DNA of 64,000 nucleotides. Origin: Sphaerodactylus townsendi (lineage: Eukaryota). Both the position numbers and the translations under genes were made by a program. The DNA is taken from positions 13,888,001 to 13,952,000 of the forward strand of contig NC_059435.1 of NCBI RefSeq assembly GCF_021028975.2. The letters are read 5' to 3'. The notes under the pieces are model-generated. The model made no database searches and was not told the origin of the DNA. It saw nothing but the letters and a program-made list of their open reading frames with translations. Every line of letters starts with the position of its first letter. The first letter of the stretch is position 1. Positions 26,666 through 60,954 of the stretch are shown piece after piece.

Positions 26666-27219
26666 GACCCAGCCGGAGGCCATCCCATCCAGGAGGAGTC
26701 AGCACCCGCGTCATGAACTGAGCACCCGACTGAGCTCACAGCTCCTGGAGACAGCCCACTTGAATTGGTAAGCTCAATCACAATCCACAATCACAATAGA
26801 ACCTTTATTGGCATCAGAGTATACAAGCGTGAATCTAGACCATTATTAAATTTAAAAGAGTTGTGCGATTTTTTAGACATATCAGCACCAGATTTCAATG
26901 ACATATATCATCAGGAGACTGTCCTTATGCTGCACCCCCAAGTCAGGTGAGGGTTTGGTTCAGGAGTCCAAAGTTATGGACTCCCAAAGGGAATACCCAT
27001 TGTTTGCAATGGGAGCTAATAGAGATGGGGCTACAGTTTTAGCCCGATTCATCCCATCTAAATGGTTCCACTCATTTCTAAATATTCTAAATGGTTCCAC
27101 TCATTTCTGCCTTTTCAGGACCCAGCGGAGGCCATCGCATCGGCGGAGATGGCACCTCTAAGTGAACAGAGCACCAGCGGGTGAGCTCGAGCTGCTGGGG
27201 GAGCCTTTAAATTAAATGG

Positions 27220-28085
27220 CAATCACAATCACAATCACAATAGAACCCAGCATTGGCATCAGGTATACAAGCATGAATATAGACCGTTATTAAATTTAAA
27301 AGAGTTGTACATTCTGTCTATGAGTAATTTTACATTCTAAAATCACACTTTAATATAATATAGATTAAAAATTTGACCATTCCATTTGGAATTGTGAACA
27401 GATATAGTACAACTACACTTAAAAGGCAGGATTAAGATATTTCTAGCCATTTAGTTTATTCACAGCCTATTTACTAAAAGGCATAACAGCACTTCCCGAG
27501 ATCTATAAATGGTGCATACTAATTAATGCTATAAAGTGGTGATTTCCATTAAAATGCAATAACTAACAATGTGCTCCTTGTATACACCTTCTATAATAAC
27601 TGCAGGTACCGGAGGTATAGAGTATTTCACATTTAAATATAATTTTATACTTTAGTATTTTACATACCTCTTAAGGACATGACTTGCAGCAAATACTTGC
27701 TATTCTCCCAAGTGTAAAAGGATCATTACTGTTTAGCAATTTTTGAGATTGATATTTTGAAGGCACATTTCCATTATCGGTAGTAATAAAGCTTCCCTCT
27801 GTGGGTTATATTTTGGGCAATAACATAAAATGTGGTCCAATGTTTCCAGCATGTGGGTGGACAGAAGGGCATACTCTATGTAGTAGAGGGGCGTTTCTCA
27901 ATCCGCCTTGCAAAGTGCAGAGGGAAAAAACATTACATCTGGCACAGAGTCAATACCCAAGCTGTTTAGAATCTAGGATTTCAGATAAATATTTGGCCAT
28001 CGTGCCAGCATCAGGAGTTTATACCAAAGTACAATGGGGAGCATGTTGTTGTTGCATGATTGATTAGTATGTTGATACTCCTGAT
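27220..28085 (-). mobile_element. RTE-X-like LINE 3' fragment with (ATTGTG)n tail; shorter copies at ~26777-26870 and ~40389-40565
   Basis: Minus-strand GATGCCAATAAAGGT..(ATTGTG)n tail at 26.8 and 40.4 kb, degenerate at 27.2 kb; the adjacent 3' UTR is shared among the copies. Confidence 0.6.
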
Positions 28086-28959
28086 CATATAGTCTAACAC
28101 AATTAGGCTATATATTTGTTGGGGTCCCTTCAATACCAATTCCTCTAATGAGAAACCCAATGAATTGAGTTTACCGTTTATTATGGTACATTGATTTTGT
28201 CTCAGCTATGTCTGCTTTAATAAGACGATTCCCCAAAGTGCATGTTTTTCTAAGTCCAATTCTGGGGTACACATTTGGCAGCCTGGTAATTTCTCTGTAA
28301 CAATGGCCAGTATTTAATATGATATTCTAAATGGTTCCACTCGTATTCTAAATGGTTTTACACCTCAAGAATATTCCATAAGATCAGCTGGACTTTAAGA
28401 AATGTGGTTTGAAAGAGGCCGGGTAAACAAGAGTTTCTGTCTGTGGGTTTTTTATACAACCCCACTTGGATATGCTGGGAAATAAATTATCCCAATTAAC
28501 CGTTACCTTTTCAGGACCCAGTGGGCCCATACTATCCAGGAGGGTCAGTGCAGCCTCTGGGAGACTGATGGCGTGGAGACTGGCCCCTGATGTATATATA
28601 CCAGCATGGAGATTATCCACATCTCTCCCGAGGTGGAAATACGGCTGCCCATGCCAAGACCACAGGTGGGGTAGGTGTGTAGAAGACATTTCAAATGCGG
28701 GCTCTTCTCCTGTAAAAGTGAAAATATGCAGCTAATATACCTTACCAATAAACATAAATCCCATTCTTCATATACAAAAACATAAGTGGTATCTAAACAT
28801 AAGGAAGAGTAAACTTACAAAGACCTAAAGCTGTTCTTTGGTGTCAGCAGGTTGTATTCAGAGAGCAGAGTGAAATTGTCACAGCAATGGTTATATACTG
28901 TCAAGTTAATTGACCACAGCTGAATTCACAGGAATGATGAAAAGTCAATATTAGAATTC

Positions 28960-29372
28960 CGTCCTCCTGGAGTTGTAGTATTCAATTCAAATATTTATCT
29001 TGCTTCTCTCAATTTTCTTTTAATGGCCATAGTTGATTCTGAGTTGGAAATCACTTCCACCACACTATATCTTAAAGCGTCAGGGGAATGGTTCTTTTCC
29101 ATAAAATGATCCACCAGTGGAACTCCTGGGACCTTGTTACGAATCCTTGAAATGTGTTCCAATATTCCGATTTCTCTTGATGTCTGCGCCACATATAATG
29201 AATTACATTCCCATGGGATAACAAATACTGTATTTTTAGTTTTACGTGTAGAAAAATGTCTACATACCTCGAACCAACCTTTCTCTTGTACAACCAGTTC
29301 TTTACATTCCCATGTACATTTACATGCAAGACAATTCCCACATTTAAAAATGACCTGTGGTGACTGGTACAT
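28960..29372 (-). mobile_element. Penelope-like GIY-YIG endonuclease domain (degraded)
   Basis: FKCGNCLACK linker, NTVFVIPWECNSLYVAQTSR..ILEHISRI, PLVDHF...H, LREAR; homologous to the plus-strand copy at 18.7-19.15 kb. Confidence 0.85.
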
Positions 29373-30281
29373 TGGTTTTTGTCTCAGTTATGTCTGCTTT
29401 AATAAGACGATTCTCTAACGTGCATGTTTTTCTATGTCCAGTTCGGCAGCCTGGTAAGTTTGGCAGCCTGGTAAGTTCTGTAACAATGGCCAGTATTCCA
29501 ATATGATATTCTTAATGGTTCTTAATGGTTCCACTCATTTCTGCATGTTCTAATGAGGTATGAATCCTTTGTTCCTGTTCGTTTTAATTTGGGCTTAAAC
29601 AAGGTTGCCCTGTGTCAGCTGTCTCTCTGGCACTTTTAATTCTATGCCATGGAACGTTTCTGTTCAGTAAGTTACCCTCCTTGAGGCTCTTTTGTAATCT
29701 CTTATTCTTGTCGAATTCCTTTTAGACCTCAAGAACAGCTCTGCCACACCTTCCAGGCTTCACCATGGAGAAGAATGGGTGAGAAAAGACCTTTCTGCCA
29801 TTTGGGTGACCTGGGGCTAGTCACAGAGGAGGATGCCAACCAACATCAGTCGCGTCCTTGTCTCAATTCCCAGCTAGCCCCTGGCATTTAATGACTTTAC
29901 AGAAATTACATCAGTTTTTCCTAGTAGCTGTAGTATACCCTAAGAGCTTCCGGAACAGAGAGAAGCAGAAGTCCCACAGTATCCTCCTTCTGTTGCCACT
30001 CCAGGACTTGTGTTTCTCATAGACTCTATGGTTCCTCCAGATTCCTGTAGACTGGAGATCAGCCATATTTCTTGGAGAACTGGGGATTTATCACGTTGGG
30101 GCAGCTGGCACCCAGCAGGAGACGAGGGCTGAGGACATGGAGGACCTCTCACAGTTTTGAATGGACAGTGAGCTACAGTGATGTGGACTCCAAGCACATC
30201 ATGACCACTATTTTTTAGTGATAACCTTGAGCTTAATTTTTTGTTTTAAGCGGCTCCGTCCTCTTCTCTCTTATGCTTGCA

Positions 30282-30353
30282 GATGCGTTCTTCGCGAGTC
30301 CAGCCAACAAAATGTCCTCCCATCTGACCATAATAACATCAAAGAGCCAGCAG
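30282..30353 (+). other. Candidate internal exon (72 nt) of an unidentified transcript; upstream intron and acceptor duplicated at ~30650-30800
   Basis: CCTCTTCTCTCTTATGCTTGCAG| ... CAG|GTGAGC; paralogous acceptor CTTTTCTCTTATGCTTGTAG ending at 30800. Confidence 0.4.
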
Positions 30354-31039
30354 GTGAGCAGATCCAAGTTTTACAGTTTGGGGGCATAGCTTGAGTGGGG
30401 AGGCAACTGCGTTTAGGATTGTGTGTTGTGTGTCATAGTAGAAGTTGGGAGGGCAAATTTGTTCCTTTCTGGGCATTCATTTGAATTGCTTACTGGATTG
30501 GCACAAAATAAAATAAAAGCTTTCCTCTGCTTGGAAATCTGGTAGTTCCTACCGGCTAATATTCCCATTGCCCCTACCCCCAGCAGAGAGCCGGTACCCT
30601 TACAGAAGCCACCTGAATCACGGTACCTTCACTACCAGGCTGAGTTTGAGGACATGGAGGGCACCTCTCACAGTTTTGAATGGACAGTGATCTACAGCGA
30701 TATGGACTCAAGCACATCATGACCACGTTTTTTAGTGATAAGCTTGAGCTCAAATTTGTATTTTAAACGATTCAATGCGTCTTTTCTCTTATGCTTGTAG
30801 GCCCGAATCAGGATGACTGCTCCTCCCAAGGTGCCGCCGGAGCAGATGTAGCAGTCTGGAGCTCCATGACTGGAAACTTTTTTTAGGACTGTAGGACTTT
30901 TAAATCTCTACGGATTATTTTAGCTTGAATGAAGGGTTTTCCTATCTTCCACTGCATCGCACTTACGTTTTGGCATCCTGTTTAATAAATTCAGAAAGCA
31001 AGACTGTGAAAATGAGAACTAGGTTGCTAATAATGTATG

Positions 31040-36490: not shown

Positions 36491-38119
36491 GCTGCCAAAT
36501 GTACCTGAGAATTGGAAGTGGCATGGGTGACTTTTGCGGTGGGAGACTGGGTGGGAGCCACGGCTGGCGCGGAGGAGGCTGATCAACTTGAGGGTGCTTT
36601 TTAAAATGTCCCACCCAGGAAAACATTGCTTAACAATTGGGGGGCGGTCTCCGGGCTTGTCAAATCGGAGCTTTGTTTACGAGATGACTACGGATTGCTG
36701 GGATGCCTAGCACTGAGTTGCTCCGCCGTGTCCTGAAAAGGCATGGTTATTTTGGATTATTTCCAATATCAGGTATTATGATCTCTGGCTGTTTTTCAAT
36801 CCTGTCAACAAGTCCATTGAAAGTCCAAAGTCCAAAAATTGAACGTGATTCTAAGGATCTAAAGTCTAAAGACTTTAAAGTCACATCTAGGAACAGAGTT
36901 CCTTGGAGAGAAGATAAATTTCACAGTGACACCTCCAGTGATCTCAATCGTGCAAAGACATGTAGCAGCTCAGGAGATGAACCGTTAACAGGGCAGTACT
37001 TAGATAGGGCAGCAAAAAGGAAAAATTTGCCACCTAAATTGTACTTAAGAAGTACTTAAGAACCAACTATTAAGAATTGTACTCGCCTAGTCCAAACTGT
37101 TTCCGTGAGGTTAGACAACAATTTGGAGTGGGAAGTGCCAAGGTTTCAGAGTCTGTCCATGATTTCTGCCGCACAGTGAGGGACACGCTCTTCAAGAGGG
37201 TTGTCCGTTTTGCAGATCCAGTGGAAAAGGTTTGTCCCCCCCCCCCCAATTTTGTCTTATACAAAATTGCACAACTGTGCATTCAGGCAGTCTTTCCCAC
37301 CTTCCGTTCACGCCCCAACACTTATTGAGGGGCAGGAAAAGGGGAGCGCTATGATCAGCCACTCTGACATACGCCTGCCCTTATGCAGGATTCAGCCACT
37401 CTGCCAGCTGCCCAGATGCCCCAATGAGGGGGGGGGGACAGGGGTCAATACTCAAACGCTCTTCCAGCCTGCCCTGCCCAATCAAGTGGGGGAAAGTGTC
37501 CTGGAGTCAGCCACTGTGTACGCCTGCCCTCACACACAGGCAGGCCTCACCCATATGCCTCCTGGGGGGAGGGGGCAGGACTCAGGAACTATGCCAGCCT
37601 GCCCCACCTGGCACCCCTCACCCTTGTGGCAAACCAAGGGAGGAAAGGACTGCCCTGCCTTGCACGCAATGCCATGTCAAGTGTTGTGGGACGTGTCGTG
37701 ATCGTGCTCTGACCAGTCCGGACAACCTTGCCCTCTTCTTCCAGTGACCTTGTTTCTTCACTTTGCTCTTCAAATTTTCTTGTTTATTTATTTATTTCAG
37801 TGACCTCATTTCTTTCCTTTCTTTACTCCTGCTTGATCCTCCTTGATAAAAACTCTGCCACCTTTTCTTGGACTTTGGAATAACGATGCCTGTTCAGGAG
37901 AAACACAGTTATAACTGCTGTGTGGCTCCTCCTGGAGATGGTTTGACAAGCACTGAAATAACATCACGATTATGAAACTTGGATCTGGCGTACCAGAAAT
38001 TAATCCCCAGCACAATGACTGAAGCCCCAAAGTGTGGTGAAGCAGTGCCTGTCCCCACGTTGCAGCAGAAATGCGAAAAAACAAGACTCCAGATCAAACC
38101 TGAAAGCTTCTCTAAAGGT

Positions 38120-39240
38120 GACACAACTAAAAGAGGAGGATTTAGTTTACCGAATTTAGAACTATAAGCGGTAGTAGAAATTATGAATACAGACAAACTT
38201 TCTGTTAGCTTAAAAGATTTACCATTAACTAGCTTTCATAAAACATGGGAACCATTTATTCAGTATTTGGGAAAAAAACAAAATAATTAAATATATAAAC
38301 ATAAGATTATTTATCTATTGGATATACAAAACTGTACTGGCTATGCTCTTCATCTTATACTAATTTTCTTTTTTTTTATTTAAGCAAGTAGAATTACGAA
38401 TGGAAGTCTCCAGTCAATACAAAGGAAAAGTCATCAGATTTTTTTTGGTTTTTTTTACGTTTTATTTTAATATAAATATTGAAGTTTTATATATTGACAG
38501 TACAATAGTAGAGGCACTTTGATTTGTATAATAGCTTAAAAACAAAAGAAAAAGAAACTCAAAAACGAACAAATAAGTATATAGGCGTATTATTACGAGA
38601 CAGAAAAGCTTTATGAAGTTGTTCTTTTTCTTTTCTTTCCTTTGTTATCTCGGCGGTCGTAGAAGAAGTCATTGATTTTAATCTTGTTATATAAAGTTAG
38701 TTGCAATGGTAGTAATCTATGTAATAGAGTATGGTGCAAAGGTATCTGTAGACATATGACAAGACAGTGAATAATGTAACCTTATTTTTTGTGTATATTT
38801 GCAAGTTACAATAAAAGCTTTATTTAAAAAAAAGAACTATATTATAAAGCATCAGGATTAGTTTGGCTTAGGAACTGGATGCTCTTGGGTGATACGGAAT
38901 TATTAAACTTAGAAGGTTTTGATTTATGTTTCTGGTTGGTATTTTTATATTTGGTTTGCACAAGGAAAAGAATTTAGTGTTTTTACGAACCACTCAATTA
39001 GAAAATCAATTTTTAGAATTTGAGAGGAGTTTCCAAAAAATAATGTCAAAAAAAACACCAAAATGGATTTCACCACATGAGGTCTCAATGATGAGAGCAA
39101 ATTATAATTATGACATAATCAGATATGGTGATTTATTGATTTGTGAAAGAGGAGAAATAAAATTAAAAGATATCCCAAGTGTGCCGATGGTTCACATACT
39201 TGCAAATTAAAAAATGACCTTTTTTGTATTAAAAAAAGAT
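38120..39240 (+). mobile_element. L1 ORF2 fragment containing a nested younger L1 3' end (38167-38832)
   Basis: KRGGFSLPNLEL/YYKASGLVW is continuous across the insert; TSD AGAACTATA (38158-38166, 38833-38841); insert ends AATAAA plus an A-run. Confidence 0.8.
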
Positions 39241-39389
39241 TTTTAAAATCTTTTCCACATGCTGCAACTTTTGCACATGTACAAGGCTCAAACATTTCAC
39301 CCAAATCTAAAATCATGGTGCTGTCCTGTACTCATTCTTGCAAGTGCCGTTACACCTACATTGTAAGACACAAAGTAGTACTGAATTAT

Positions 39390-41300
39390 AAATCTAAAAA
39401 TAATCCAAAATAACCATGCCTTTTCAGGTCACAGAACTGAAGAACCATCTCATGAATACACATCTCACGAATACACAATAGGTGCCTGGAAACATAGACT
39501 ACTATTTGCCTCCAAATAATGGTGATGATTTGCAAATTCCTTACATGCTCAAAAGATTCCCGAACATGGCAGATGAGGCAGACGAAAAAAAGGACCTCCA
39601 GCAGAATGATTGAAGGCAAAGCTGTGCCTGTCCCACCCAGGAAAACCAAGACGTCGAGACCCAAATTGCAGCGGAAATGCCTAAAAGAAGATCCGTTTAA
39701 AGGGGTAGGTGTCCAGAAGACACTGTAACAGACGCTGCACCTTGGCATACAAAAACTCAATACTTGAGTCATAAGCAAATGATTTTCAATTGTGAAAAAG
39801 GATTCGTAATTCGAAACGGCGGAGAAACTCAGTGCTAGGCGTTCCATCATTCAGCAATCATCTCAGAAACAAAGCTAAAATTTGACGAGTGCGGAGAAAG
39901 TCCGTCAATTGTTAAGAAAGGACCCCGGCGTCTTTTCCAGACCGACGCAGCAGAAAGACCGACTTAACAGGGTAGGTTTAGAGAAGACACTGTAACAGAG
40001 CTGTACACTGTAAGACACTGTACAAAAACTCAATACTTGAGTCATGAACAAATGATTTTCAATTGTGAAAAAGGATTCGTAATTGAGGCTCTTTTGTAAT
40101 CTCTTATTCTTGTTGAATTCCTTTTACACCTCAAGAATATTCCATAAGATCAGCTGGACTTTAAGAAATGTGGATGGAAAGAGTCCCGGAGTAAACAAGA
40201 GTTTCTGTCTGTGGGTTTTTTATACAACCCCACTTGGATATGCTTGGAAATAAATAATCCCAAATAACTGTGCCTTTTCAGGACCCAGCGGAGGCCATCC
40301 CATCGAGACGGGGGAGCAGCACCTCTCGCAGACAGAGCACCCGCAGACCGAGCTCCGAGCTCCTGGAGACCGCCCCGCAATGCGTAAGCAATCACAATCA
40401 CAATCACAATAGACCTTTATTGGCATCAGGTATACAAGCGTGAATATAGACCGTTATTAAATTTAAAAGAGTTGTACATTCCGTCTATGAGTAATTTTAC
40501 ATTCTAAAATCACACTTCCTTTATAAAAATATAATATAGATTAAAAAATATAATATAGATTAAAAAATTAACCGTGCCTTTTCAGGACCCAGCGGAGGCA
40601 AGGCGGGTCAGCACCGCATCTCACAAACCGGGGTCCCGAATGATGAGCGTGGAGACCGGCACACAATACTAATTTACCAGCATGGAGACAATCCACATAC
40701 TGTACAACTGGAAATACGGCTACCCCTGCAGACCTGTAAGACACTGTACAAAAACTCAATACTTGAGTCATGAACAAATGATTTTCAATTGTGAAAAAGG
40801 ATTCGCAATTGAGGCTCTTTTGTAATCTCTTATTCTTGTTGAATTCCTTTTACACCTCAAGAATATTCCATAAGATCAGCTGGACTTTAAGAAATGTGGA
40901 TGGAAAGAGTCCCAGAGTAAACAAGAGTTTCTGTCTGTGGGTTTTTTATACAACCCCACTTGGATATGCTTGGAAATAAATAATCCCAAATAACCGTGCC
41001 TTTTCAGGACCCAGCGGAGGCCATCCCATCTAGGAGGGTCAGCACCGTGTCTCGCAGACCAAGCTCCCGACTGATGAGCGTGGAGACCGCCCCGCAATAC
41101 AAATATACCAGCATGGAGATCATCCACACACTGTACAACTGGAAATACGGCTACCCCTGCAGACCTACAGAGTGCAAAGACCATGTTAACGGGGTAGGTG
41201 TGTAGAAGACAATGTATCAAAACTGTTCACTTTAAGACCTCAGAAACCTCAGAGTCATCAACAAATTATTTTCAATTGTGAAAAAGGATTTCTAATTGTG
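39390..41300 (+). repeat. Tandem array of exon-like cassettes (39428-39704, ~39816-39970, 40282-40383, 40586-40735, 41008-41193)
   Basis: Recurrent acceptor (C/T)GTGCCTTTTCAG|, donors GTAGGT/GTAAG, and a shared spacer ..GAGTCAT..ACAAATGATTTTCAATTGTGAAAAAGGATT (4 copies). Confidence 0.75.
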
Positions 41301-41649
41301 ACAGGCCCAATCTTCACTTCTGCGAATGGTAAATCCAGGGATATTTAAATCCAACAGGTGAAGGACCAAGAAACTTATATGAGGCTTTTAGACGACAAAC
41401 GAAGTATTCCTTCGAAGTAGTTTGCAGGCCAGTTAATTTGTGCACTCAATTGTCTGTGAATTGCAAAGTACGGGCAGGGAAGCGGCGTGGGTGACTTTTG
41501 TGGTGGGAGACTGGGTGGTAGCCACGGCTGGAGCAGAGGGGGCTGATCAACTTGAGGGTGCTTTTTAAAATTAATTTGTGTGTGCGTGCGGGAAGGGAAG
41601 CGGCGTGGTTGACTTTTGCGGTGGGAGACTGGGTCGGAGGCTGAGTACC

Positions 41650-42180
41650 TGCCATTGGGTTTTTCTGAGGGTTTCCATATTCCGTATTCCATTCAGCGGG
41701 GTCCAGTAGGCCACGAGCGCACCTAATCTTAAATCGGCCAGGGAGTTTTCAGAGGCCCCTTTCATCACCCACCCCCCCCCCCCCCGTTGCCCATGTTGCG
41801 GGTCTCACCTCTCAGGGTAGTCCCCAAAAAGGCCCCAGGGGAATTCAGATTAATTCAGCATTTGTCCTACCCTAAAGGGGGGGGGGGTCTGTTAACGACG
41901 CCATCGACCCAGCTTTATGCTTGGTTTGATATGCCACATTGGATGAAGCTATTCACCTCATTGAGCTATCTGGAAGGTCTTTTCTCCTGGCTAAGTGTGA
42001 TGTCCAGTTGGCGTTTCGCTTAATGTCAATTCACCCAGATGACTTTGATCTGTTAGGCATCTATTTCGAAGGAGCATTGTTTGTGGATAAAGCCATGCCA
42101 ATGGGCTGTTTGGTGGCTTGCGTCGCCTTTGAAACCTTCAGTTCATTTTTAGAATGGGCTCTTAAGGAAAAGGTCTCGGG
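41650..42180 (+). mobile_element. DIRS/Ngaro (tyrosine-recombinase retrotransposon) reverse transcriptase fragment
   Basis: GFHIP, VSPLRVVPKKAPGEFRLIQHLSYPKG../SVND, LAKCDVQLAFRLMSIHPDDFDLLG, DKAMPMGC..AC..FETFSSFLEW. Confidence 0.9.
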
Positions 42181-45469: not shown

Positions 45470-45876
45470 GTCTTCAGGCAAATTAATAAGAACATGACAT
45501 TTATTTGCAAGCTGGCCAGGGGCTGCCAAGGACAAGGCATCTTTCTCACAAAGAACCCCCAGATCCAGGAAAAACCCCGAATAATATGTCATGAGTATGT
45601 CTCCAAGGTGGGCCTGGAGAGGGTCCTTTGCCCACTGCTGCACCCACTTTCCTGGCCTGCTAGATTGGCTTGCCTGGGGAGAGGGGGCGCCCATGTTTGC
45701 TGACAGCAGTTCCTTGTTTTCTCTCCCTGCAGCCCTTCCTCATTGAAGATTTAAAATTTGATTTACGTCTGTATGTCCTTGTCACATCCTGTGACCCTCT
45801 GAACATATTATTGCATCAGGAGGGACTGGCCCGCTTCACCACCGTGAAGTACAACATGCCCAACAGCAACAACCTG
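45470..45876 (+). pseudogene. TTLL6: TTLL6/TTLL13-like tubulin polyglutamylase fragment: 5'-truncated exon 45470-45607, GT-AG intron 45608-45732, exon 45733-45876
   Basis: KNMTFICKLARGCQGQGIFLT...ICHEYVSK | [42 protein letters not shown] matches the TTLL6/13 core as remembered (YICKPDSGCQGKGIF...ICQLYISK|[23 protein letters not shown]...EGLARFAT); canonical splice sites; TTLL6 vs TTLL13 not resolved. Confidence 0.85.
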
Positions 45877-46074: not shown

Positions 46075-47363
46075 TGTAGCATCTCGTGAGGTCAGGAAAC
46101 CCATGCAGCTGATCAGCCTGTGTTGAAAGTGAGCTCACAGTGTCTCAGACCCTTAACTGGAATAGGGGACACTGCCCAGTGACCTTGTGTTGCAATGCCT
46201 CCAGTTTTATGCTGAAAGAAGGTGGGATATAAAGCAGAGGCGTACCAAAGGTAAATAGCGCCCGGATACAAATTGTCTCCAGGACGCCCCCCCAGGCTCT
46301 GCCCACCACTACCATAGCTCCACCCGCCACTGCCCTCGACCCCGCCCATGTCACCATGAACATGGCCAAGGTCTAGGGTGCCCACTCCCCCTGCTGGCCC
46401 GGCAGCCTGCCAGAAGAGACTGCAGTCCTGATGCCTTGTTGTTTTTGTGTGCCTCAACTGACACAGATGAGGTCGAGGCACGTGAAATGACGAGGCAGCA
46501 GGACTTCCTGGTCAGCTAATCTGCACCTTAACTCACACCAATCCTTCAATGTGGGCTAGTCCATCACACCTCCTATTTATTTCTTGCCTCAAAACGTTTT
46601 GGTTGTGCAGAAAGGGCTCTGTATTAGAGAATTCCAGAGGAACTGGCTTCAAGATCTGGACGGGGAGTATTATGTGCTGAATTTCTGCTGAAGCAAACAA
46701 AGAAATAGAGATGTGTTGCTGGTTTGCTAACAGGCTGACTGGAAGGAGATTGAGTTCTATAGCCAATGGGCAGTTAAAAACTGTTAGGATGGGGAAAGGC
46801 ATAAGAGGCAGCCCAAAGCACATCTGTTAACTGGTATTTGCGTGCTGAGTCCTGGGGAAACGATAAACATCTGAAAGTCTTTTAATAAATTGTAATAGCC
46901 AGTTTTGGTCAAAACATGATTCACTGGTAATGGGCTTTGAGAAGGAGGATCCCAGCTACAGGCTAAATGGCAAATAAGGGAAGAGGAGACCGTTTGAATT
47001 TGAACCCCTTTCCTTTCCTCCCTGCAGCTCACCAACCCCCATGGCTATGACTGTGTGGCCATTACTCCCTTCACCCCTGACCTGAATGGCCCAAGTTAGC
47101 CCAACCCCACCAGGTCTCAGAAGCTGAGGGTGACAGGGCACAATAATGGGTGTCAGTGTTATGCTGGATTGTCTCGATGCTACTGCCCCTTGGAGTGGAA
47201 TTCTGAGAAATGGAGGTGGCAGTTAGAGATGACTGTTAGCAGACTTCAGTGCTGAAGGGATTTTGGTTCTGAATGTGTTTTTGTTGATATTTGGTGTGTT
47301 CTTAAGAAATAAAAGCCAACGTTTTCTACACATCCTGTCTTTCCCCCTGATTGGAGTGTAACA
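46075..47363 (+). mobile_element. LTR-like element (family recurs at 55960-56620 and 57418-58800), with ~350 bp of extra sequence at ~46165-46510
   Basis: TGTAGCA...TGTAACA termini, flanks GAAG/TAAG, AATAAA at ~47308; high identity to the 56-59 kb copies. Confidence 0.65.
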
Positions 47364-47520
47364 TAAGCAGGGTCAAGCCTGCCTGGTCCTTGAATGGGAG
47401 ACCACCACAAAAGATCAGGGTTGCGATGTCGAAGCAGGCAATGGCTTCTGCTCCTCTCTGGCCTTGAAAACCCTACTGGGAGTCCCCTTAAGTCACTTGC
47501 ATCTTTAACAGCACTTTAAA
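47364..47520 (+). mobile_element. 5S rRNA-derived SINE fragment
   Basis: TAAGCAGGGTC..GCCTGG..CTTGAATGGGAGACCACC resembles the 5S internal promoter region and is followed by a non-5S body. Confidence 0.55.
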
Positions 47521-48469
47521 GACGTATCACAATTCCCCCCTTCAGATCCTGTCTCTGCAGGAATCCACTTGGTTCTGGAGGGAGGGAAAGGGGGAGCAGA
47601 CCAGTGATCCTTGTATGAATGTACTGCTGCATCCAACCAACTGGTTTCTAATCCATTTCTGGGCTGGTGGGCGCAAGTCAACGTACAGCTGTGACATGGC
47701 CCGCATTCAACAGCTAGTTGTGAGGGACTTAATCCAGGCAAAGTCTCAAAGGATGCGTTTGGAATGAGATGGTGCATGCAATTGCAACGGTGGCTATTAT
47801 GCTGTGATAGCTTGTCTCTTGCCTTGAACACTTTAAAGGCTTGCTAGAAGTCAGCTGCAACTTGATGGTGAAATTACAACACCACCAATGGCTGATCTGT
47901 GGTAGTTGCTTAATGCAAACAGTCACATTCTATGCGAGATGATTTTCATGAATGTGGATTTCAAACAATCGTGAATAGAACGCACTTAACACTGAGGCAT
48001 ATAATGATGGTGAAATCTGAGATTGTCTCTTCATGTGTAGCCAACTCAGGATCTGGGATCTCCCGGTCATCTTTAGTATGTTTAAACATAGGCAAGTCGG
48101 CACCCACTTGATATTCATGAGTTCACCAATTCACCTGTAAACGACCGCAAGGTATCTGTGCAGGTGCCTTTCCTATATTTGTTTGGCCTGAGCACTAGCC
48201 ATATTTATGTTAGGATTCATAAAATGGCTGATAGGTGAACAGGGTGTCTGAAGGAGTGATCAGCTTCATGGCTGCAGAAAGCAATAGAAAGTTATTCTAA
48301 GCTATGGAAAATTCCAGTGACAGTTAGGCTGCAGGAGAAATGTAACCAGTGTTAACCTTTAATATGATTGGTGGAGAACTTTAGACCAATCAGGGACATG
48401 TTTGCTTGGGCAGGAAAATGTATCCATCTGAGCCTGAACTGGAGTTGGTAACCATTCTATGAAAAATCC

Positions 48470-48602
48470 TTGATGATTCCTCTTTAATATGCAACTTATC
48501 CCTGAAATCAGCCTCCCTCCCTAAAGACTGGAAGATGGCCAATGTCACACCAATCTTTAAGAAAGGGTCTAGGGGGGACCAAGGAAATTACCGGCCAGTC
48601 AC
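48470..48602 (+). mobile_element. CR1 RT fragment
   Basis: PKDWKMANVTPIFKKGSRGDQGNYRPV. Confidence 0.8.
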
Positions 48603-48931
48603 AAAGCTTTTCAGCTTCTTTTTGTTTATGGAAAGGAGTCCCTTTTACAGTTATATATCTTTTAACAATACAGTTATAACACAAACAACTACAACAACAA
48701 AACCTTTATTAGGCATAAGTTAAAATCTCTACAAACAATAATTCTGTACATGGGTACAGAAATAGTCTAATATCCGGGTTGTAATAAAATATTATATACA
48801 AAGAAACTATCGGATATACTGATGATACATTGTTTAGCGATCAAACCATTAAAATCCATTTACATTATGGAATGGCTCACTTATCTTTTTATAAAATCAC
48901 ATGTAAGCCCGTGTTTTTATAACTTATATAA

Positions 48932-51900
48932 CTACCTAAGCTCAGGTTTTTGGTAGCATTTGTTGTTTATTACTTTTGCTAAGAAAGTTGCAACCTTAAG
49001 AGTTATTTCAGGGGACCGATCATTTAGTAAGTAAAATACTATGTGTGTTGCAGGTAGGCTAGGTTTTGTTTTAAGAAGTGGAGTAATATAAATACTACGT
49101 ATAGAAGAGTAGAACTGACAGTTTAAAAAGATATATGCTGGATTGAATCCCACTTCATTTTAATGGAGCATGGGACACCTTCTCTCTGAGATTGGTATGC
49201 CTTGATATCGTCCTTCCATTACTTTAGAGGGGAAGGAGTTAAGCCTAACCAGCACTCAAAATGCTCTGCGTTGAGATGGATCGTCAAGACCCCTAGCAGA
49301 AAAAAAAATATTGGGCCATCTTGCCATGCAAAAGGGTTAATTTTAGCTTGATTCAAGGAGAGCAAACTTGGCTGGTTGTTGAGGGGTTGAAACTTTTGCT
49401 GTTCCACATCAAGGGATTCTTTTGTCTAAGGAGCCCTAAAAATGCGTCTTACTCATCATTTAAAAAAGAGATTCAAAAAATCTCAATGAGAAGCCCAAAG
49501 TTTTTATTTTAATTTCTAAGTTAGTTAGCCAGGTTGTACTCAGTGGGTCAGATTTAAAGTAGGATAGGAGCGAACTTTCTTTTGCCTTAAAGAACATTTT
49601 CAGCCAGAGATCTAAAAAAAGGTAATCCACGCTTTTGTTTCCACACAGTGCAAAACCCAGTTCCAAGATATATTACTGAGTTTTGGAACGCATTTTGGGA
49701 CTCCCAGGATTTTTCTGTAGAAAACAGACTGAATTTTTTTTTTTTCTACTCATATGGGCTCCAAAGTCTTGGACTCCATAAAGGGTGCTCCATACAATAA
49801 AGGGAGATATTATTTTTTGCTTCAAAGAGATTTTGGAGGCAGCTGGGATAATTTGATTTCCTTTGGCATAAAAAAAAATTGTGTAATTGGAATGGAGGAG
49901 CAATTGGCAGTTCTGATTAGTTTTGCTTTTGTGTTTTAGTCCATGCGTGTTAAGGGTTGTATTGGAATATTATGCCCAGGTAATTAAACTCCTTTACTTG
50001 GGATAGGGAGTTACCTTCAATTTTCCAGTTTTAGAACGGCTTCCAGCTTTTTTGAAAAAACTATAATTTTTTGGATTTGAGGTAATTTATGAACCAATCT
50101 GGTTTTGTTTGACAGTAATTGTGAAAAGCTTGTAAATATCTTAGAAGGCCAACTCTAGTTGAATGAAAGAGAATGTAGTAGTATCGTCAGCATATAGTAG
50201 CAAAGGAGTGTCTCTGGTGTCTAATTTTGGGGGATGGCCATTGTTGACAGTTTTATTGAGCACTGGTGCTAAATCATTTAGAAATAAATTAAATAGGTTA
50301 TTGGAGCCAGAATGCATCCCTGTCTCAGCCTTGAGTATTGATCGGGGAATTTTGGAGATAATTCACCTTTGTTTGTACATTTAACCTGGCTATAATTATC
50401 AGAATGAATTTTTTTTGATGAGAAATAATAAGCGGGCTCCATCTGCAGCTTTCCCTAAGTTTTTTTTCCCAAAGTTATATTCCTTTGGAGAGAGTCAAAG
50501 GCACTTTTCAAATCAATAAATGCCACATATAATTTCTTTGTACCCTCTGTCCTTCATATATTTATTTGCTAAAAATGCCAGAAGAAAACAGTGGTCTATG
50601 GTAGATTTGCCATCTGTAAACCCAATTTGTTCTTGGTCCTATAATTGAATACCTAAGGATCCAGGCCTTAAGAATCGCAGCTCTAGATGTTTTGTGTAGA
50701 GAGTTTGCCTATGATAGATAATAGGCTAATAGGCCTACTATAATTTTCTGGGAAATTTGGGTTTGCCTTGCTTTTAAATATAGGGACAATGATGGAGTTG
50801 GAGCCAAGCCTCCGGAATAATCTCCAAAGCGATCTATTATTAGGTGAAAAAAGGTTTGCTAATGGTGGGAGACCACCAGTTGAGAATATTGTTTACTAGA
50901 AGCTCAGCCATGGGAATGCCCGTCAGGACCAGGTGCTTTCAGGTTTTAATTCTTGTATTAGCTCTTCTACTTCTTCTGCATTGACAGGAGTCCATACAGG
51001 AAGCTGGTTTAAAGTATTGTTGTCAATCAGTTTTAGGGGTTCACTAGAAACATTAAAGATGGAACAGTAATGGTTATTCCAGATATGAGGAGGAATACTT
51101 ATGGAAGGTGTTTGTTCTTTCAGATTTAGATGTCTTGCGACAATTTGCCAGAAAGTTTTCCCATTTTTTGAATTTAAGGCAGTAGCTAGTTGGTTCCAAT
51201 TTTGTTGGTAGAAGGCATTTTTTTTTGGATAATTTTTCTTCGGAACATTATTTTTTGATTTAATAAGTTTTTGAGAGACTCATGATCATTAAATTTACAA
51301 AATTGATTATGCAGGTATCTTAATAGTTTCTTATCCGTGTTACACTCTGCATCAAACCATGAGCAGGAGAAACCTACCAGTTGTTAGATTTGCAGTCACT
51401 GGAGGGTTTTGCCAAAAGATTTTTAGTAAGTCTATCAGGTTGGAATAATGCTTAATTATACTTTCATTGGACTTAGAGGAGACTAGCTCAAATCTGACTT
51501 TGCCCGCTTCATCTGAATCAAGTAATGTTGACAGTTTTCCCCCAGTTTCCTCATTCCAGATGATCCTTTTTAGGGTACTAGATTCCGGACAAGACTGGTC
51601 TTGAGTGATTGGTTCTTGGGTATTATATTTATACAGAAGAGAAACTTCGATTGGTATGTGATCACTTTCAGTTCTATTTCCTGTAGAGAACATGTCAATT
51701 ATTTTAAGAGTCTCACAGGTACACAGGCCATAGTCAATTACGCTACAACCTTGTGGGGAAATAAATGTATATTCTTTAGAAGAAGGAAATTTGTCTAAGC
51801 CATTTAAAATTACTAGATTATTGGCCATACAGAATTCAATTAACCTGAATCCCGCCTTATTTATTTTACAATCATTTGAGTTCCTTGGGTAAGATAAGAC

Positions 51901-52444
51901 AGCAGGTAACTCGTCATTTTTATCAAGGTTCAGCTGGTTGATCAGCGACAGATTACTGGCACCTATTCTGGCATTAAAGTCGCCTAAAAGAAAAATTCGA
52001 GAGAGATAGTATTTTGACCTTAATTCAATCCTCAAATAGTTAGTTAGTTTTTCCTGCATTGAGAGGCACGACATTAGAATGAGAAGCACGACATATATAT
52101 ACATTTATAATAATCAAATTATAATCTTGTAGTTGAATTGAAATTGCTTGAGCTAGAGGGTTTAATGGAGGAATTGAAAGCACTTGTATAGAATGTTTAT
52201 ATAGAATAGCTAATCCTCCGCTGGGGCGTCCTCTGTCCGCATTTTTCTGGGCATATAGGTTCTGAGAAATGTAGCCATCAAGTTTTATATCTCTTGTTGC
52301 CCAAGTTTCTTGCAGCAGTAGACAGTCAAATAATTTCACATAATTCATAAAATCTGGGTCCGATTGCTTATTTTCCCATCCTGCAATGTTCCAAGAAAGT
52401 ATTTGAAGCTTAGGGAGTGGGGTGACTGATGTGGAAGTAGGTAG
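48932..52444 (-). pseudogene. ORF2 (APE endonuclease plus reverse transcriptase) of the RTE-X-like element, frameshifted in this assembly
   Basis: ORF pieces 52040..52348, 51352..52104 and later fragments carry APE, RT and C-terminal RCPC..HI.F.C..Y / KVATFL motifs. Confidence 0.85.
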
Positions 52445-54049
52445 TCAATCTTCATTTGTAATTTGACCTAAAAGGTTACAGGTGTCAAAGAACACACATC
52501 CTTTTGCTTGTTGAGGAGTAGGAATACTTGAAGCCTTTTGGATGGGGCTCGATAGTTCTAATATAGCACCTTTCTGTTGGGTTGATAATGTTGTTGAGGT
52601 ACACTCCATTCTTTCTGTGTGTTGTTCATTTTGTACCTGTTTTGGGGACTCGGTTTCCAACAGTTCCTGTGCCCATGATTTGCTTTTGGGGGGCATGTTA
52701 AAGTCCACATCTAATATTCTATTGACATGTAAATCCACTTCATAGTCAATTTGTTCATTCATGTATTGTTTGGTAGGGTTTAAACTGGATGCCGTGGGAG
52801 GCTGAGATGGATCAGAATGAGTATGGATCAGCAGTTCATCACACTTCTTTAATAGGTTGGAAGGACTTTCAGTATTGAGAAGTAGTTGTTCATCTGTCTC
52901 AGAGCATAGTAGATTTGATTTAGACGTCTCAGAATAATTTACAAGGTAACGTTCGATTGGATTGGGTAGCATATTTAGGTCCACCTTGTCATCTGGTTCA
53001 ATAGCCCTGGTCTCAGTCTGTAGAGCAGTGGCAGGCTCTTTAGTAGTTGCAGCACTTAAGGCTTGGGCCACCCAAGGTTCAGGATTAAGGCTCTGAGGCC
53101 TGGGGTCCGACTTCACATGAGGTCCTCTATCAGGCAAACCGTTGTCCTTAACAACTCTGTCAACTTTAGTTTTGTAGATGAACGGTGTGATGTTCGCATT
53201 GGTAAACACACGTGTTGGACGGATCCTTTTCTGGGCAAGGGCCTGCAATTGATCTAATAATAGCCTTGGTATGGTTTCAGAGCCAAAAGTAAGAATGACT
53301 CTTTGTGGGTCATGCTCATATAGATTATGAATTTGGTCAAGCACTTTAGTTTCCAATAGGTCAATAATAGAGCTAGTCTTTTTTTTTAGTAAGATGCTGA
53401 GATGTCTTTTTGCCAGGTTTAAAGGAGCCCATATGGGTCTGACACCACGGTAATTATATACATAACAGCATACTTTGTTCTTCTCTAAAAGTAAACACTG
53501 AGTATCAATAGTGCTTTTATAAAACATTCTGGGTACAGGTTGGCTTACCCTGTTCGTGGTTAGCAGAGCTTTTTTAACAGTAGATAGCTGGTCATTGATG
53601 TTATTAAATTCACTAAAGATGTTTTTAAGAGTTCTTGCCACAAGATGGCATAGTTCATGGGTGCTGGGTACATCTGATATTGTTATTGGGAAGTTGTCTT
53701 CGATATTATTAGGGTTAGCCATCGGGTTTCCTGCAGTAAGATTAGATGCACAGTCTTCCGAGTTCTCTCTGCTGATTAAGGGGATAGGGTTACATTGAGT
53801 GGGTTTTTCCATGCCCTCCCATTCACAGTCACGTTCACCCAATCTGTGCTCTAGTTCTAGTAGAGAAAAACTGTTTGAAGTTGGAGTCAAAATAGTCGTT
53901 TTCTGTGCCGAGGTTAGATCATTTGTAACAAGAAAATCTCCTATTTTGAGTTGTTTACACAGTGGAGTGGAGATTAGCTCTGTCTCTTCCAGGTCTCTCT
54001 GCCTTTTTTTCCCGAGGCATTTCTCTATCAGGTTTATTAGCAGGGAAGA
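52445..54049 (-). CDS. ORF1 of the RTE-X-like element (frame open from ~54049; start codon uncertain)
   Basis: 481-aa ORF whose frame extends upstream through GKKRQRD...KQLKIGDF; ends at TGA 52447-52445 directly before the APE domain. Confidence 0.75.
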   Translation of the reverse strand, partial: SSLLINLIEKCLGKKRQRDLEETELISTPLCKQLKIGDFLVTNDLTSAQKTTILTPTSNSFSLLELEHRLGERDCEWEGMEKPTQCNPIPLISRENSEDCASNLTAGNPMANPNNIEDNFPITISDVPSTHELCHLVARTLKNIFSEFNNINDQLSTVKKALLTTNRVSQPVPRMFYKSTIDTQCLLLEKNKVCCYVYNYRGVRPIWAPLNLAKRHLSILLKKKTSSIIDLLETKVLDQIHNLYEHDPQRVILTFGSETIPRLLLDQLQALAQKRIRPTRVFTNANITPFIYKTKVDRVVKDNGLPDRGPHVKSDPRPQSLNPEPWVAQALSAATTKEPATALQTETRAIEPDDKVDLNMLPNPIERYLVNYSETSKSNLLCSETDEQLLLNTESPSNLLKKCDELLIHTHSDPSQPPTASSLNPTKQYMNEQIDYEVDLHVNRILDVDFNMPPKSKSWAQELLETESPKQVQNEQHTERMECTSTTLSTQQKGAILELSSPIQKASSIPTPQQAKGCVFFDTCNLLGQITNED

Positions 54050-55042
54050 TTAGGGCATATAATTCAGAATCTTCAGAATATGATAGAGACTAAATAGGTC
54101 TGCATTAGTAGGTTATAAACAACAATTAGCAGGCTGTTGTGCTTTGTAAAGGTAGTTGCACTGGCTATATTAGCTGGCGTTAAAATTAAAGAGAGGCGTT
54201 GGCTTATGCACTCCTCCGTTTTCGGCTTATCTAGGCTTTCTAGCTGTTTATTATAGCTTGGTATCAGTAGACAGAGCTTCAAAGCCTTCAGTTGTCTGCT
54301 AACAAGAAGCAGAAGTGGCAAAAGGAGATAAAAGCAGTCACGGCGAAGCCCTGAGGTTTGGTATATTTAAGCTGAATAAGGAGTTTTTCAACCGACCTGC
54401 AGCCGCGACACCATCTTCAATTTCCCCCCGAACTATCTTATAACACAAATCATATTATGTTTAGCACACACACTTGAACAAAGGGAAGAAAAATTTGAGC
54501 TAGGTTGCCGTCAACTCCCTTCCAAAACTGGAACATAGCTTCTCTTCTCACAGTTAGAAAAGGGTAAATCATTTGTCTCCCTTATTTATGCAATATCTTT
54601 AAACAAGTGAGCCTACAATCTCTTGTTACTTCTGTGTAACTTAATTCCATAAGGCTTTCTCTTTCAAAGCTATTTGGAAACAAAGAGCCTGCCAAGAAAT
54701 ACTATGTTGGTTACTGGAGGCTTCACTCTTTAAGTCTGAAAATTTTTAGATTTTAAAAGGTACACAGACGTGCTCCAGTTCCCCAGTTTTCCTTTCTTCC
54801 TGCAGCTGTTAAAAGACTGGTCTCTGGTACTAAACTTTTGTCTGGAATTCTTGCTCTTTGAAAACTGGGTACAAGGCTACATCATCTAAGAAAACTGAGG
54901 CACATATTTAGCAAAACACAGCCTTCAAGGCATAAAAGTGAAAAGTTACTGCAAAATAGGCAATTTTCTCAAAGGATGGTAGGAAACAGACTTTAAACAG
55001 TCAGGGAGGGAGGTGAAGATGCTCCCTGTTAAGACGCTAAAG

Positions 55043-55801
55043 CAGGGGTCCCCAAACTTTTTAAACAGGGGACCAGTTCACTGTCCCTCAGACTGTTGGA
55101 GGGCCGGACTAAAAAAAACTATGAACAAATTCCTATGCACAAATGATTGTAAAATGTTTGATTTCACCTTTCAGCCTTTCTGTCATGGTCTATTTTTAGA
55201 ACAGTGACCAAAGTATGTCAAGTACAGGGTGGGCTCCAAATATTGTTGGGGAGGCTGTGGAATACCTTCCCCTGTAGAAAAAGCAGAACTTTCCCAATGA
55301 AGCATTCCATCTAACCCAGGATTAGATATCTTCCTGGGTTCTTCCTCCCTAGCAGCCAGCAAGCGATTCACCAGCCTGGCTGATGCCAATGGGAGTGAGG
55401 CGGAACAGAAAGCCTGAGAGCAACACATGGAGTAGCCGAGAGGGAAGGGCGGAGCAGGAGTTGCCACGTGTAAGGTTTCCAACTCTGGGTCAGAAAATTC
55501 ATGGAGATTTGAGGGTGCCATCATGTAATTGCAATCAACATTTTTCTCCTTCTCTCATACTGTACACCGCCCTGAGCCCCTCGGGGGAGGGCGGTTTATA
55601 ACCCCAAAAAATAATAAATAAATAAATAAATAAATAAATAAACAAACAAACAAACAAACAAACAGCTGTTGGGGCCGGTTCCTCCTCTCCCTCGAGCCCC
55701 CGCTGCACATGAATGGAGCCGTCGCCGCCATGCCTGGCGGGCCGGATAAATGCCTTCAGGGGGCCACATTTGGCCCCCGGGCCGTAGTTTGGGGACCCCT
55801 G
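55043..55801. mobile_element. Non-autonomous hAT, OposCharlie1(OC1)/nhAT-like ends, with unrelated internal sequence
   Basis: Perfect 16-bp TIRs CAGGGGTCCCCAAACT / AGTTTGGGGACCCCTG; 8-bp TSD CGCTAAAG (55035-55042, 55802-55809). Confidence 0.9.
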
Positions 55802-55959
55802 CGCTAAAGAGTCCATTCTGCCTGGCACAAAGCTTCTAACTTGCTTTTAGATCCTGCACCCTTGCATTTTAGAATTTTCCAATTAAACAAGACATAGGCT
55901 AGGGCTGAGTCCGTCGACAGGGGTTCCTTCTTCTGCTTTTTAGAAAACCAAATCATGAC

Positions 55960-58800: not shown

Positions 58801-59228
58801 TAACCAGAATGTTGAGCTGGGTCAGACATAAAAGGATGATGTTTAACAAAACATGCAAATCAGTATGAAACAACATACTTTGATGTGCATGAGAGTTATG
58901 AGAAATCAATCTTAGAGTCTCTGTGCAATTTCTGTGTTGTCATGATTTTGTATGTATTTAAGTTTAAATGCATTGCTTTCCAAAGCTTTTGAAAACACGT
59001 AAGCTAAGAACACTGGAATTGAACCATTGTAAGAGCCTTTGGTCGGCGTTTTGTGTCTCAGTGGCAACTACTGTTGATGATTTAAACCAAAGAAATATTT
59101 TGCTGACTGAAACGTAGTTCACAGGGTGTCAGTCATGGTAATGACGTAGGCCTGCGCCGTTTTCAATGTCTCGAAAAAGCTTTCCCCCCCATAGTCTTGA
59201 TTACAAAAAAGAGTATGATTTCTCTGTC

Positions 59229-60410
59229 AGCCAGTCCTCCTTCTTTGGTACTAGAACATGCTGTTAAACTGAATAAAATTAATTGATTCATTCAAAGCCT
59301 CTTGTCTCCAGGAATGGTGGCTCAGTAACGTCGTACCCCAAAGCCTGGGTGTGGGGGGAGCCACCTACAATGGAGGCTGGATGGCAAGAAAGGGAGATTA
59401 CAAGTGTATGTGTTTTATCACAGTTTGTGGTCAGGGGAACCATTTGTGATCAGGGTGTCCAGTTAACATTTTGAACTCCCTTCCATCCCCACCCCACCCT
59501 TCATTCTTCTCCCTCCCAATTCCTATCAGGATATACCACAGAGTCGGGGTGTTAGAAATGTCCAGCTTCCCCCCACCCCCAAGGAGCATGTGCTACAGCC
59601 ACAGACATACTTTTAATTCACAGGTCTCCTACCAGGAGTGGGGCAACTGGGGCTACTTTAAGGAACAGCCAAACCACCCCCCCCCCCAAGTGAAATAGAA
59701 AACTTGAGGATTTGAACACTTAAGAACATAAGAACATAAGAACTAGCCTGCTGGATCAGACCAGAGTCCATCTAGTCCAGCACTCTGCTACTCGCAGTGG
59801 CCCACCAGGTGCCTTTGGGAGCTCACGTGCAGGATGTGAAAGCAATGGCCTTCTGCTGCTGCTGCTGCTGCTCCTGAGCACCTGGTCTGCTAAGGCATTT
59901 GCAACCTCAGATCAAGGAGGATCAAGATTGGTAGCCAGTCCTCCTTCTTTGGTACTAGAACACGCTGTTAAATTTAATACAATTAATTGATTAATTCAAA
60001 GCCTCTTGTCTCCTGGAATGGTGGCTCAGTAACATTGTACCTGGTGGGGAGAGCCACCTAAAATGGAGGATGGACGGCAAGAAAGGGAGATTACAAGTGT
60101 ATGTGTTTTATCACAGTTTGTGGTTAGAGGAACCATTTGTGATCAGGGTGGCCAGTTAACATTTTGAACTCCCTTCCATCTCCACCCCACCCTTCATTCT
60201 TCTCCCTCCCAATTCCTATCAGGATATACCACAGAGTCGGGGTGTTAGAAATGTCCAGCTTCCCCCCACCCCCAAGGAGCATGTGCTACAGCCACAGACA
60301 TACTTTTAATTCACAGGTCTCCTGCCAGGAGTGTGGCAACTGGGGCTACTTTAAGGAACAGCCAAACCACCCCCCCCAGTAAAATGGAAAACTTGAGGAT
60401 TTGAACACTT
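59229..60410. repeat. ~490-bp direct duplication (59229-59721, 59933-60410) around a CR1 3' end; third partial copy at ~61025-61115
   Basis: Near-identical ORFs 59471..59698 and 60164..60382. Confidence 0.9.
59722..59932 (-). mobile_element. CR1 LINE 3' end
   Basis: Minus-strand CTGGTCTGATCCAGCAGG..(TTCTTATG)n 8-bp repeat tail typical of CR1. Confidence 0.85.
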
Positions 60411-60677
60411 CACTGGTTTCAATTTTTATTTCCCCCCCCCCCATTAAGTTTAACAAACTATCAACAATCTAGCTCCGCGGGGGGGACTCTCCCATCTCTC
60501 CTTCCCCTTTTTCTTTTACACTTATGTGTGGGTGTGGGTGCGTGTGCATGCACGCTCATGTGCCTGTCCTGGTTGTATGACCCATGGAAGCTAATTTTAC
60601 TTCGAAGATCAGCACCATAAAAAAAACTGCGGGGGGGGGGGGGAGTGCCCAAAATCGATGTTTGTATCAGGAAGGAA

Positions 60678-60954
60678 GGAAGAAGAAGAGTTGGATTTAT
60701 ATCCCCGCTTTCTGCTTACAAGCTCCTTTCCCTTCCCCCCTCACAACAAACACCCTGTGAGGCAGGTGGGGCTGAGAGAGCTCCGAAGAACTGTGACTAG
60801 CCCAAGGTCACCCAGCTGGCGTGTGTGGGAGTGCACAGGCTAATCCGAATTCCCCAGATAAGCCTCCACAGCTCAGGCGGCAGAGCGGGGAATCAAACCC
60901 GGTTCCTCCAGATTAGAATGCTCCTGCTCTTAACCACTACGCCACTGCTGCTCC
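60678..60954 (-). mobile_element. tRNA-derived squamate SINE (Squam3-like)
   Basis: Minus-strand A box TGGCGTAGTGG, B box GGTTTGATTCC, CORE-like GGGTGACCTTGGGCTAGTCAC, (CTT)n tail. Confidence 0.85.

Follow-up and report, generated by a model that had tools for sequence, protein, structure and literature searches.

Three cassettes at 40282-41193 of the window, the 64,000-nucleotide stretch of Sphaerodactylus townsendi DNA analysed here, are best explained as tandem duplicates of a likely protein-coding, phase-0 exon belonging to a gecko-restricted orphan family centred on this chromosome. Pieces of a Penelope-like element (PLE) in antisense orientation frame each exon, the tail of this element likely provides the splice donor of the long exons, the acceptor likely originated as a duplicated start-codon context, and the locus in the window is partly decayed. 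We hold this reading, taken as a whole, with moderate confidence.

The three cassettes lie where the earlier note had placed them, on the forward strand and bounded by AG and GT, with the lengths and translations that it gave. Cassette 1 (40282-40383), a short DPAE exon of 102 nt, is open, in phase 0, preceded by TTTCAG and followed by the donor GTAAGC. Cassette 2 (40586-40735), a DPAE exon of 150 nt after TTTCAG and before GTAAGA, contains a TAA at 40670, and cassette 3 (41008-41193), a long DPAE exon of 186 nt after TTTCAG and before GTAGGT, is open and in phase 0. The GTAAGC donor of the short exons corresponds to a position internal to the long exons. Because the cassettes are homologues, the fact that all three are a multiple of three (3n) in length does not represent three independent events. 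A more distant relative proposed at 39428-39704 was also found: this VTE-type exon (+, 277 nt) carries a TAG at 39479, an extra base in an A run that causes a +1 frameshift, an in-frame ATG at 39416 within its acceptor, and a PLE-tail donor. Another relative, given as approximately 39816-39970, does exist, but its true limits are 39813-39971 (+, 159 nt); it is an ETAE-type exon with a TAA at 39876, a deleted acceptor and a PLE-tail donor. The earlier note had recorded neither the derivation of the flanks from Penelope nor a family 5′ block with an ATG (37718-37886), nor four extra copies in the window: a DTAE copy at 36634-36732 (-), which retains the ATG, contains a TAG and is without a canonical donor, and three DPAE copies at 26667, 27120 and 28516 (26667-28671, +), which are frameshifted and located in an indel-rich duplicate of a block on C3.

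A search with the exact acceptor pattern returned 18 matches, compared to 0 for a control pattern, and approximately 0.7 Mb around these matches yielded at least 32 copies on C3, C5, C11 and C15, a number that is a lower bound. A recognisable GT donor is present in 23/32 copies, while 9/32 are without a canonical donor. Among the donor-bearing copies, 20/23 are 3n in length and 16/23 are also free of stops, with the 16 open 3n copies displaying 12 distinct lengths between 75 and 198 nt; the remainder consist of two 3n copies with one stop, two that are 3n but internally frameshifted, and three that are not 3n. Codon tests were carried out on a protein-guided alignment of the 19 alignable in-frame copies (10 DPAE and 9 ETAE, with 13/32 omitted). 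Stops occur in the reading frame of 3/19 copies, compared to 11-15/19 in the other five frames. For the 10-copy DPAE group, omega was 0.333 in the reading frame and 0.94-1.61 in the other five, while the 9-copy ETAE group gave 1.00 and all 19 copies together 0.647. Relative to a model set to 1.0, a setting assumed to fix omega, twice the difference in log-likelihood was 28.8 for DPAE and 0 for ETAE. In four series of 200 neutral simulations along the same tree, the DPAE pN/pS of 0.55 was attained 0, 1, 4 and 0 times, CpG rates being raised 5- and 10-fold in the last two series, and the ETAE value 35-130 times per series. Every gap in the DPAE nucleotide alignment (10 copies) is a multiple of three. 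An unguided pairwise count, in which 16 of 61 exon indels were 3n, is uninformative, the low share arising because gaps are split in divergent pairs. The antisense frame was rejected as coding, with an omega of 1.6 and stops in 11/19 copies.

The DPAE reading frame is under purifying, not positive, selection, and for the ETAE group neither omega (1.0) nor the simulations indicate a departure from neutrality. The 3n lengths, frame-specific distribution of stops, omega and simulations support the proposal of a young, modular coding family with in-frame length changes, and the collection of genomic copies with dN/dS that had been suggested as a check, here 32 copies, with an omega of 0.33 for the ten of the DPAE group, speaks against neutrality in that group. 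"Fast-evolving" in an adaptive sense does not hold for the family, given dN/dS of 0.33 for DPAE and 1.0 for ETAE and the fact that synonymous sites also far exceed the divergence of the flanks.

That the cassettes are more diverged than their flanks is nonetheless real and family-wide. Cassettes 40282 and 41008 differ at 16/93 exon sites and at 3/250 flank sites (p=1.4e-7), and across 14 non-independent pairs the exons differ at 208/1586 sites (13.1%) and the flanks at 87/3122 (2.8%), an approximately five-fold contrast that is significant in 12/14 pairs. Decay of CpG sites was considered as the source of this divergence and rejected, as the contrast persists at non-CpG sites (10.4% in exons vs 2.1% in flanks). 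Synonymous differences equal or exceed non-synonymous ones in most pairs, reaching 17-34% in pairs whose flanks differ by 0.5-5%. A site-incompatibility test detected mosaicism in the DPAE exons (7 of 2000) and none in the ETAE exons (1562 of 2000). Since synonymous sites are also diverged and the DPAE exons are mosaic, we infer that conversion or unequal crossover, homogenising the flanks and shuffling older exon variants, fits the contrast better than positive selection.

The apparent introns and flanks match, in antisense, a retroelement that is more complete at C10:1.03 Mb and C3:99.43 Mb. A PLE 3′ end consisting of tail and pLTR lies at 39696-39811 (-; 82-87% to independent genomic copies), followed by a pLTR piece (39964-40085) joined to a C-terminal reverse transcriptase (RT) piece (40088-40243), both on the minus strand and 80-89% to copies on C10 and C17. 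A second pLTR and RT piece, with a repeat unit of 726 bp, is found at 40746-40969 (-), where the antisense translation reads GLYKKPTDRNS…HPHFLKSS, and another tail and pLTR at 41180-41392 (-) has 40 scored matches among 99 candidates genome-wide. At 28688-29735 (-), 79% to the C10 copy, is a stretch of PLE body with a CxxCxxC linker and a GIY-YIG-like end. The PLE 3′ end is present in at least 40 genomic copies, and at 13/27 loci outside the family the element breaks off at ACCATTTTAACAGGGTAGGT, past which the DNA is unrelated; the bodies of these copies are 5′-truncated. PLE sequence adjoins the exon at 11/11 regions mapped. In cassette 41008, the final 14 nt and the donor are PLE tail, and the donor of the long exons, …AACAGG/GTAGGT, is the terminal PLE tail; judging from this identity, the tail likely supplies their splice donor.

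Sequence motifs and a sub-threshold RVT_1 match in the C3:99.43 Mb copy (E 3.5e-5; 24 bits against a cut-off of 29.6) indicate that the flanks likely derive from a Neptune-like Penelope element. Neptune-type PLEs display the order RT, Zn-finger linker, C-terminal GIY-YIG-like domain (PMC8557442), and a defined terminal "tail" has been described for an anole PLE (PMC11167929). The element found here resembles these in its apparent order of RT, linker and GIY-YIG-like end and in its 5′-truncated copies with a shared terminal tail, and the CGNCLAC linker of the C3 and window copies corresponds to the CX2-5CxxC feature of the Neptune type. It differs in that the tail is read antisense as the donor of a host exon, only fragments are present, and no hammerhead was found. 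Of the GIY-YIG endonuclease with CCHH expected at the C-terminus, VY…C…LYV and H…H…H were read by eye, and the endonuclease model had a pLDDT of 37; the GIY-YIG endonuclease region had no Pfam match and the RT no match to a solved structure. Six loci, in which the copies are old, gave 7 Rfam matches at E values of 5 or lower, and none of these was a hammerhead ribozyme. No target-site duplication was identified around the PLE-exon units, whose PLE ends are ragged. The exon bodies and acceptor segment did not score above shuffles against two PLE copies, and the exon body had no match in 29 PLE 5′ regions, among which there was no full-length copy of the PLE family; a reading of the exon as a 5′ ORF or UTR of the element is thus not supported. 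As to whether the cassettes are part of a known transposable element (TE), the flanks and donor are TE-derived, but the exon bodies are not.

The cassette acceptor reads AATAACC ATG CCT TTT CAG/GAC, with an ATG in frame at -12. This codon is ATG in 16/32 copies and GTG in 9/32, including the three named cassettes; six copies have TAG at -12, which closes the ATG frame while the acceptor is kept. Upstream in the window is a pyrimidine-rich 5′ block (37718-37877, +; 82% to the block preceding family ATGs), likely representing a promoter and 5′UTR or the end of a 5′ intron. The block has 14 matches, all on C11 and one of them in the window, and leads to ORFs that mostly begin with ATG CCT or ATG CCG: MPVQEK (37886), MPVTSS, MPIISA, MPNLTS and MPLEKA. 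In the copy at C11:7.089 Mb, the 5′ block is followed directly by this same upstream sequence, a match that 0 of 200 shuffles equalled. Judged from sequence, a start context was probably turned into an acceptor by tandem duplication, with the reverse order also possible. The 5′ block is itself tandemly repeated at C11:17.125-17.126 Mb (L101:1273-2368), with a unit of approximately 326 bp. At three loci on the minus strand of C11:11.693-11.698 Mb (L208, L209 and L211), tandem unspliced ORFs follow the 5′ block, each containing KKHVRF or KKRVRF, which we take to resemble the PP1-docking RVxF motif; the 105-aa ORF at C11:11.69 Mb had no homolog and no Pfam match.

RNA was available from three raw runs of a related species (X7, X8 and X9), compared with positions 37600-41330; X7 was unstranded and approximately 6% of it was read. 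X7 contributed 693 reads, covering exons and introns alike, while X8 and X9 contributed 82 and 65 reads, mostly on repeats, with hardly any on the exons, and from tissues that are not given, so that they have no bearing on expression. In five X7 reads, …CTTAGCGGT (…GACCGACTTAGCGGT) is connected to GAAAC…, which corresponds precisely to the tail donor and the start of the exon in the paralogous type at C11:17.893 Mb (ETAE); this join has 0 matches in the DNA of G000, and the reads come from a related species. Two further reads join 40376 to 40587 in frame, giving a product 3 nt shorter than predicted. The check for junction reads therefore found five exact reads for a paralog type but no exact junction of the three named cassettes among the junctions listed for the three related-species runs. 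Most reads cross unspliced, with 57 across the acceptor of a paralog and more than 50 across a donor, and another joint, 40794-41281, seen in 7 reads, lacks GT-AG borders. No read shows alternative splicing, which had been suggested as a possibility. At 40374-40439, 82 X7 reads carry a different exon end (…AKHSQANLGAP…) before the donor, from a member absent from the stretches fetched.

The locus in the window is a partly decayed member of the family. Its first coding exon, MPVQEK… (37886-38117, +), is related to the 39428 exon and contains an in-frame TGA at 37973, confirmed by a short-read contig from run X1 that matches 37205-38195 with 0 differences. The donor of this exon has been replaced by a 3′ fragment with an A tail (38118-38830, +), presumably L1-like from its translation and tail. 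The exons at 40282 and 41008 are intact, while those at 39428, 39813 and 40586 are broken, so that, with lesions in three of five cassettes as well as in the first exon, an intact array is not supported here. Both public models, P0014 and P0015, use family exons. P0014 starts at 39606, uses 39606-39704 together with cassettes 1 and 3, skips the TAA-containing cassette 2, and terminates at 45820 in a TTLL fragment. This TTLL6/13-like fragment comprises two exons (45470-45607 and 45733-45876, +; PF03133, E 1.8e-14), is 69% to a paralog on C1, lies 4.3 kb downstream and is cut upstream by an A tail. No further TTL exon was found within 40 kb upstream or 60 kb downstream of the window, and with only the two-exon fragment present the cassettes were rejected as part of a TTLL glutamylase gene. 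A cleaner family member, at C11:20.607-20.595 Mb, has four consecutive open phase-0 exons, of which one ends at a weak GTTTGT donor.

Much of the surrounding window is also duplicated. Positions 10303-32685 duplicate, at 85-88%, the two arms of a palindrome on C3 (147.61-147.66 Mb), and in this copy gaps are about as frequent as mismatches; this region is likely poorly polished or mis-assembled, and because gaps are about as many as mismatches, frameshifts at 10.3-32.7 kb may be assembly errors. Shared downstream exons occur at 30283-30355 and 30801-31010 of the window, at C11:20.589 and 17.889 Mb, and at C3:147.661 Mb. The first of these reads GTWL…LPS only in phase 1, hinting that an overlapping donor 4 nt into the PLE tail is used for the downstream terminal exon. 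A second repeated exon family (…RKLDYTKF…KENMEIYARIC…) occupies 3400-9600 (-) and is also found at C3:147.633-147.641, C11:13.78 and C6:109.82 Mb, with long open frames in some of the C3 copies. Other features include a terminus and an RT fragment at 41480-42180 and 36514-36607, which we label DIRS-like from their translation and which had no Pfam match; an inverted repeat at 18516-19889 with arms approximately 1.0-1.3 kb apart; and, at 46089-63048, internally repeated blocks common to C11:13.87-13.88 Mb and C3:147.600-147.609 Mb, forming a duplication mosaic.

The earlier note recognised no homolog, and our searches revealed nothing beyond two uncharacterized Sphaerodactylus townsendi gene models, UniRef A0ACB8FU71 (100%) and A0ACB8EM01 (65%); a search of representatives returned four matches, namely these two models and two unrelated repeat proteins. 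Both models contain family exons, but they are automatic models without a described function or family, and A0ACB8FU71 is fused to the TTLL fragment. No Pfam family was found for the cassettes, P0014 or P0015, and the best hit of the Atlas structure search scored 0.77 with TM <0.3, the Atlas model having a pLDDT of 0.44. The exons contain 9-29% Ser+Thr and 3-20% Arg+Lys, and the RRxS phosphosite-like motifs pointed out previously are borne out, with RRx[S/T] in 8/14 exons tallied. Sites of the RRxS form are of PKA type, and expression in the testis is common among amplified orphan families of this sort; by analogy, we tentatively suggest that the product might be a germline or sperm phosphoprotein.

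The favoured reading, a duplicated host exon framed by PLE pieces, could have come about as follows. A Neptune-like PLE would have inserted antisense into an ancestral short ORF starting …AATAACC ATG CCT TTT CAG GA…, with the PLE tail giving an in-frame donor. The resulting unit of ATG context, ORF head and PLE would then have been multiplied through unequal crossover and segmental duplication, with copies further downstream adopting the CAG 12 nt past the ATG as their acceptor and in many cases dropping the ATG itself. Conversion may subsequently have homogenised the flanks while the exons retained or swapped older variants. The predicted protein would be small, basic and disordered, rich in Ser, Thr and Arg, and exon count would determine both how long it is and how many RRxS kinase sites it carries. 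The same architecture might arise if a chimeric Penelope, having taken up the ORF head, had moved by retrotransposition, in many cases as multimers arranged head to tail, the retroelement machinery spreading the exon between chromosomes. PLEs can mobilise intron-containing host genes and capture host spacers (PMC3846280), the exon adjoins PLE sequence at all 11 mapped regions, and the C5 insert, two units long, has its start and its end close to one and the same position of the PLE. We nevertheless regard this route as unlikely: the PLE tail has no match in the inserts on C5, C15 and C11:6.87, target-site duplications were not identified, and the window and C3 copies moved within a block of more than 22 kb, indicating DNA-level duplication. 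Similarly doubtful is a broader form, in which the ORF head captured by a PLE became a portable exon, with start context as acceptor and tail as donor, that was reverse-transcribed, inserted as multimers and built a protein family in one gecko lineage, its exons still being rewritten from spliced transcripts; such rewriting would account for patchworks in the exons and their absence from the introns.

A reading along the lines of the earlier note, in which this locus carries a working array with alternative splicing whose diversification is driven by positive selection, would account for the roughly five-fold divergence of exons over flanks in 12/14 pairs, for the intact state of cassettes 1 and 3, and for the omission of the TAA cassette from P0014. 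It appears improbable given that omega is 0.33-1.0 and never >1 (without site models), that synonymous differences of 17-34% accompany flank differences of 0.5-5%, that the short-read contig confirms the first-exon stop, that P0014 ends in an unrelated TTLL fragment, and that no isoform reads were found. If the family were instead non-coding debris, PLE pieces and GC-rich host DNA passively amplified with open frames inherited or due to chance, the many broken copies, the neutral ETAE group, the mostly unspliced RNA from both strands and the restriction of homologs to own-species models would be expected; the frame-specific omega of 0.33 with its simulations, the 12 exon lengths that are all 3n, and one exact junction make this quite improbable. 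Finally, the exons might be micro-ORFs of one exon each, with translation beginning at the ATG that lies 12 nt upstream (MPFQ…), their resemblance to acceptors being incidental, a view consistent with the ATG…CAG in good context kept in 11/32 copies and with the related, promoter-linked ORFs at C11:11.69 Mb, which are unspliced. With TAG at the ATG position in six copies that keep the acceptor, GTG in the named cassettes, and an RNA junction that lands on the acceptor, we consider this very improbable.

The mode by which the family was assembled works like exaptation of a TE splice site combined with tandem exon duplication, and it can be compared with several known systems. In Adineta vaga, Penelope expanded whole host genes lying between pLTRs, with a target-site duplication (PMC3846280); there, as here, host coding DNA framed by PLE ends was multiplied, but the family described here has one exon among internal PLE fragments, with PLE sequence inside the exon and no duplication of the target site found. 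The snake three-finger toxin ASSET pattern likewise concerns a squamate multigene family with very similar introns and patchwork divergent exons (PMC2474615). Divergence of exons in excess of introns and patchwork are present in the gecko family, while dN/dS >1 is absent (0.33, 0.65 and 1.00, without site models); here there is also no evident signal peptide or cysteine scaffold, and the introns are TE-derived. Dscam arrays share short paralogous exons, short introns and birth and death, but their exons are mutually exclusive, encode Ig domains and showed no conversion (PMC3236188), while mosaicism was detected and no exclusivity seen here. Rolling-circle spread of the retrozyme kind (10.64898/2026.07.22.740005) differs in that no ribozyme was found in the PLE. 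In the literature searched, with supplements outside its scope, neither this cassette family nor the use of a Penelope tail as donor by a host gene was found described.

The family thus offers a traceable assembly of a multi-exon orphan gene family in which both splice sites would have identifiable origins, one in a retroelement tail and the other in a duplicated start context, and of which assembly intermediates survive at about ten loci. As it combines conserved introns and divergent exons with dN/dS ≤1, it can also be used to test whether the venom-gene pattern needs positive selection.
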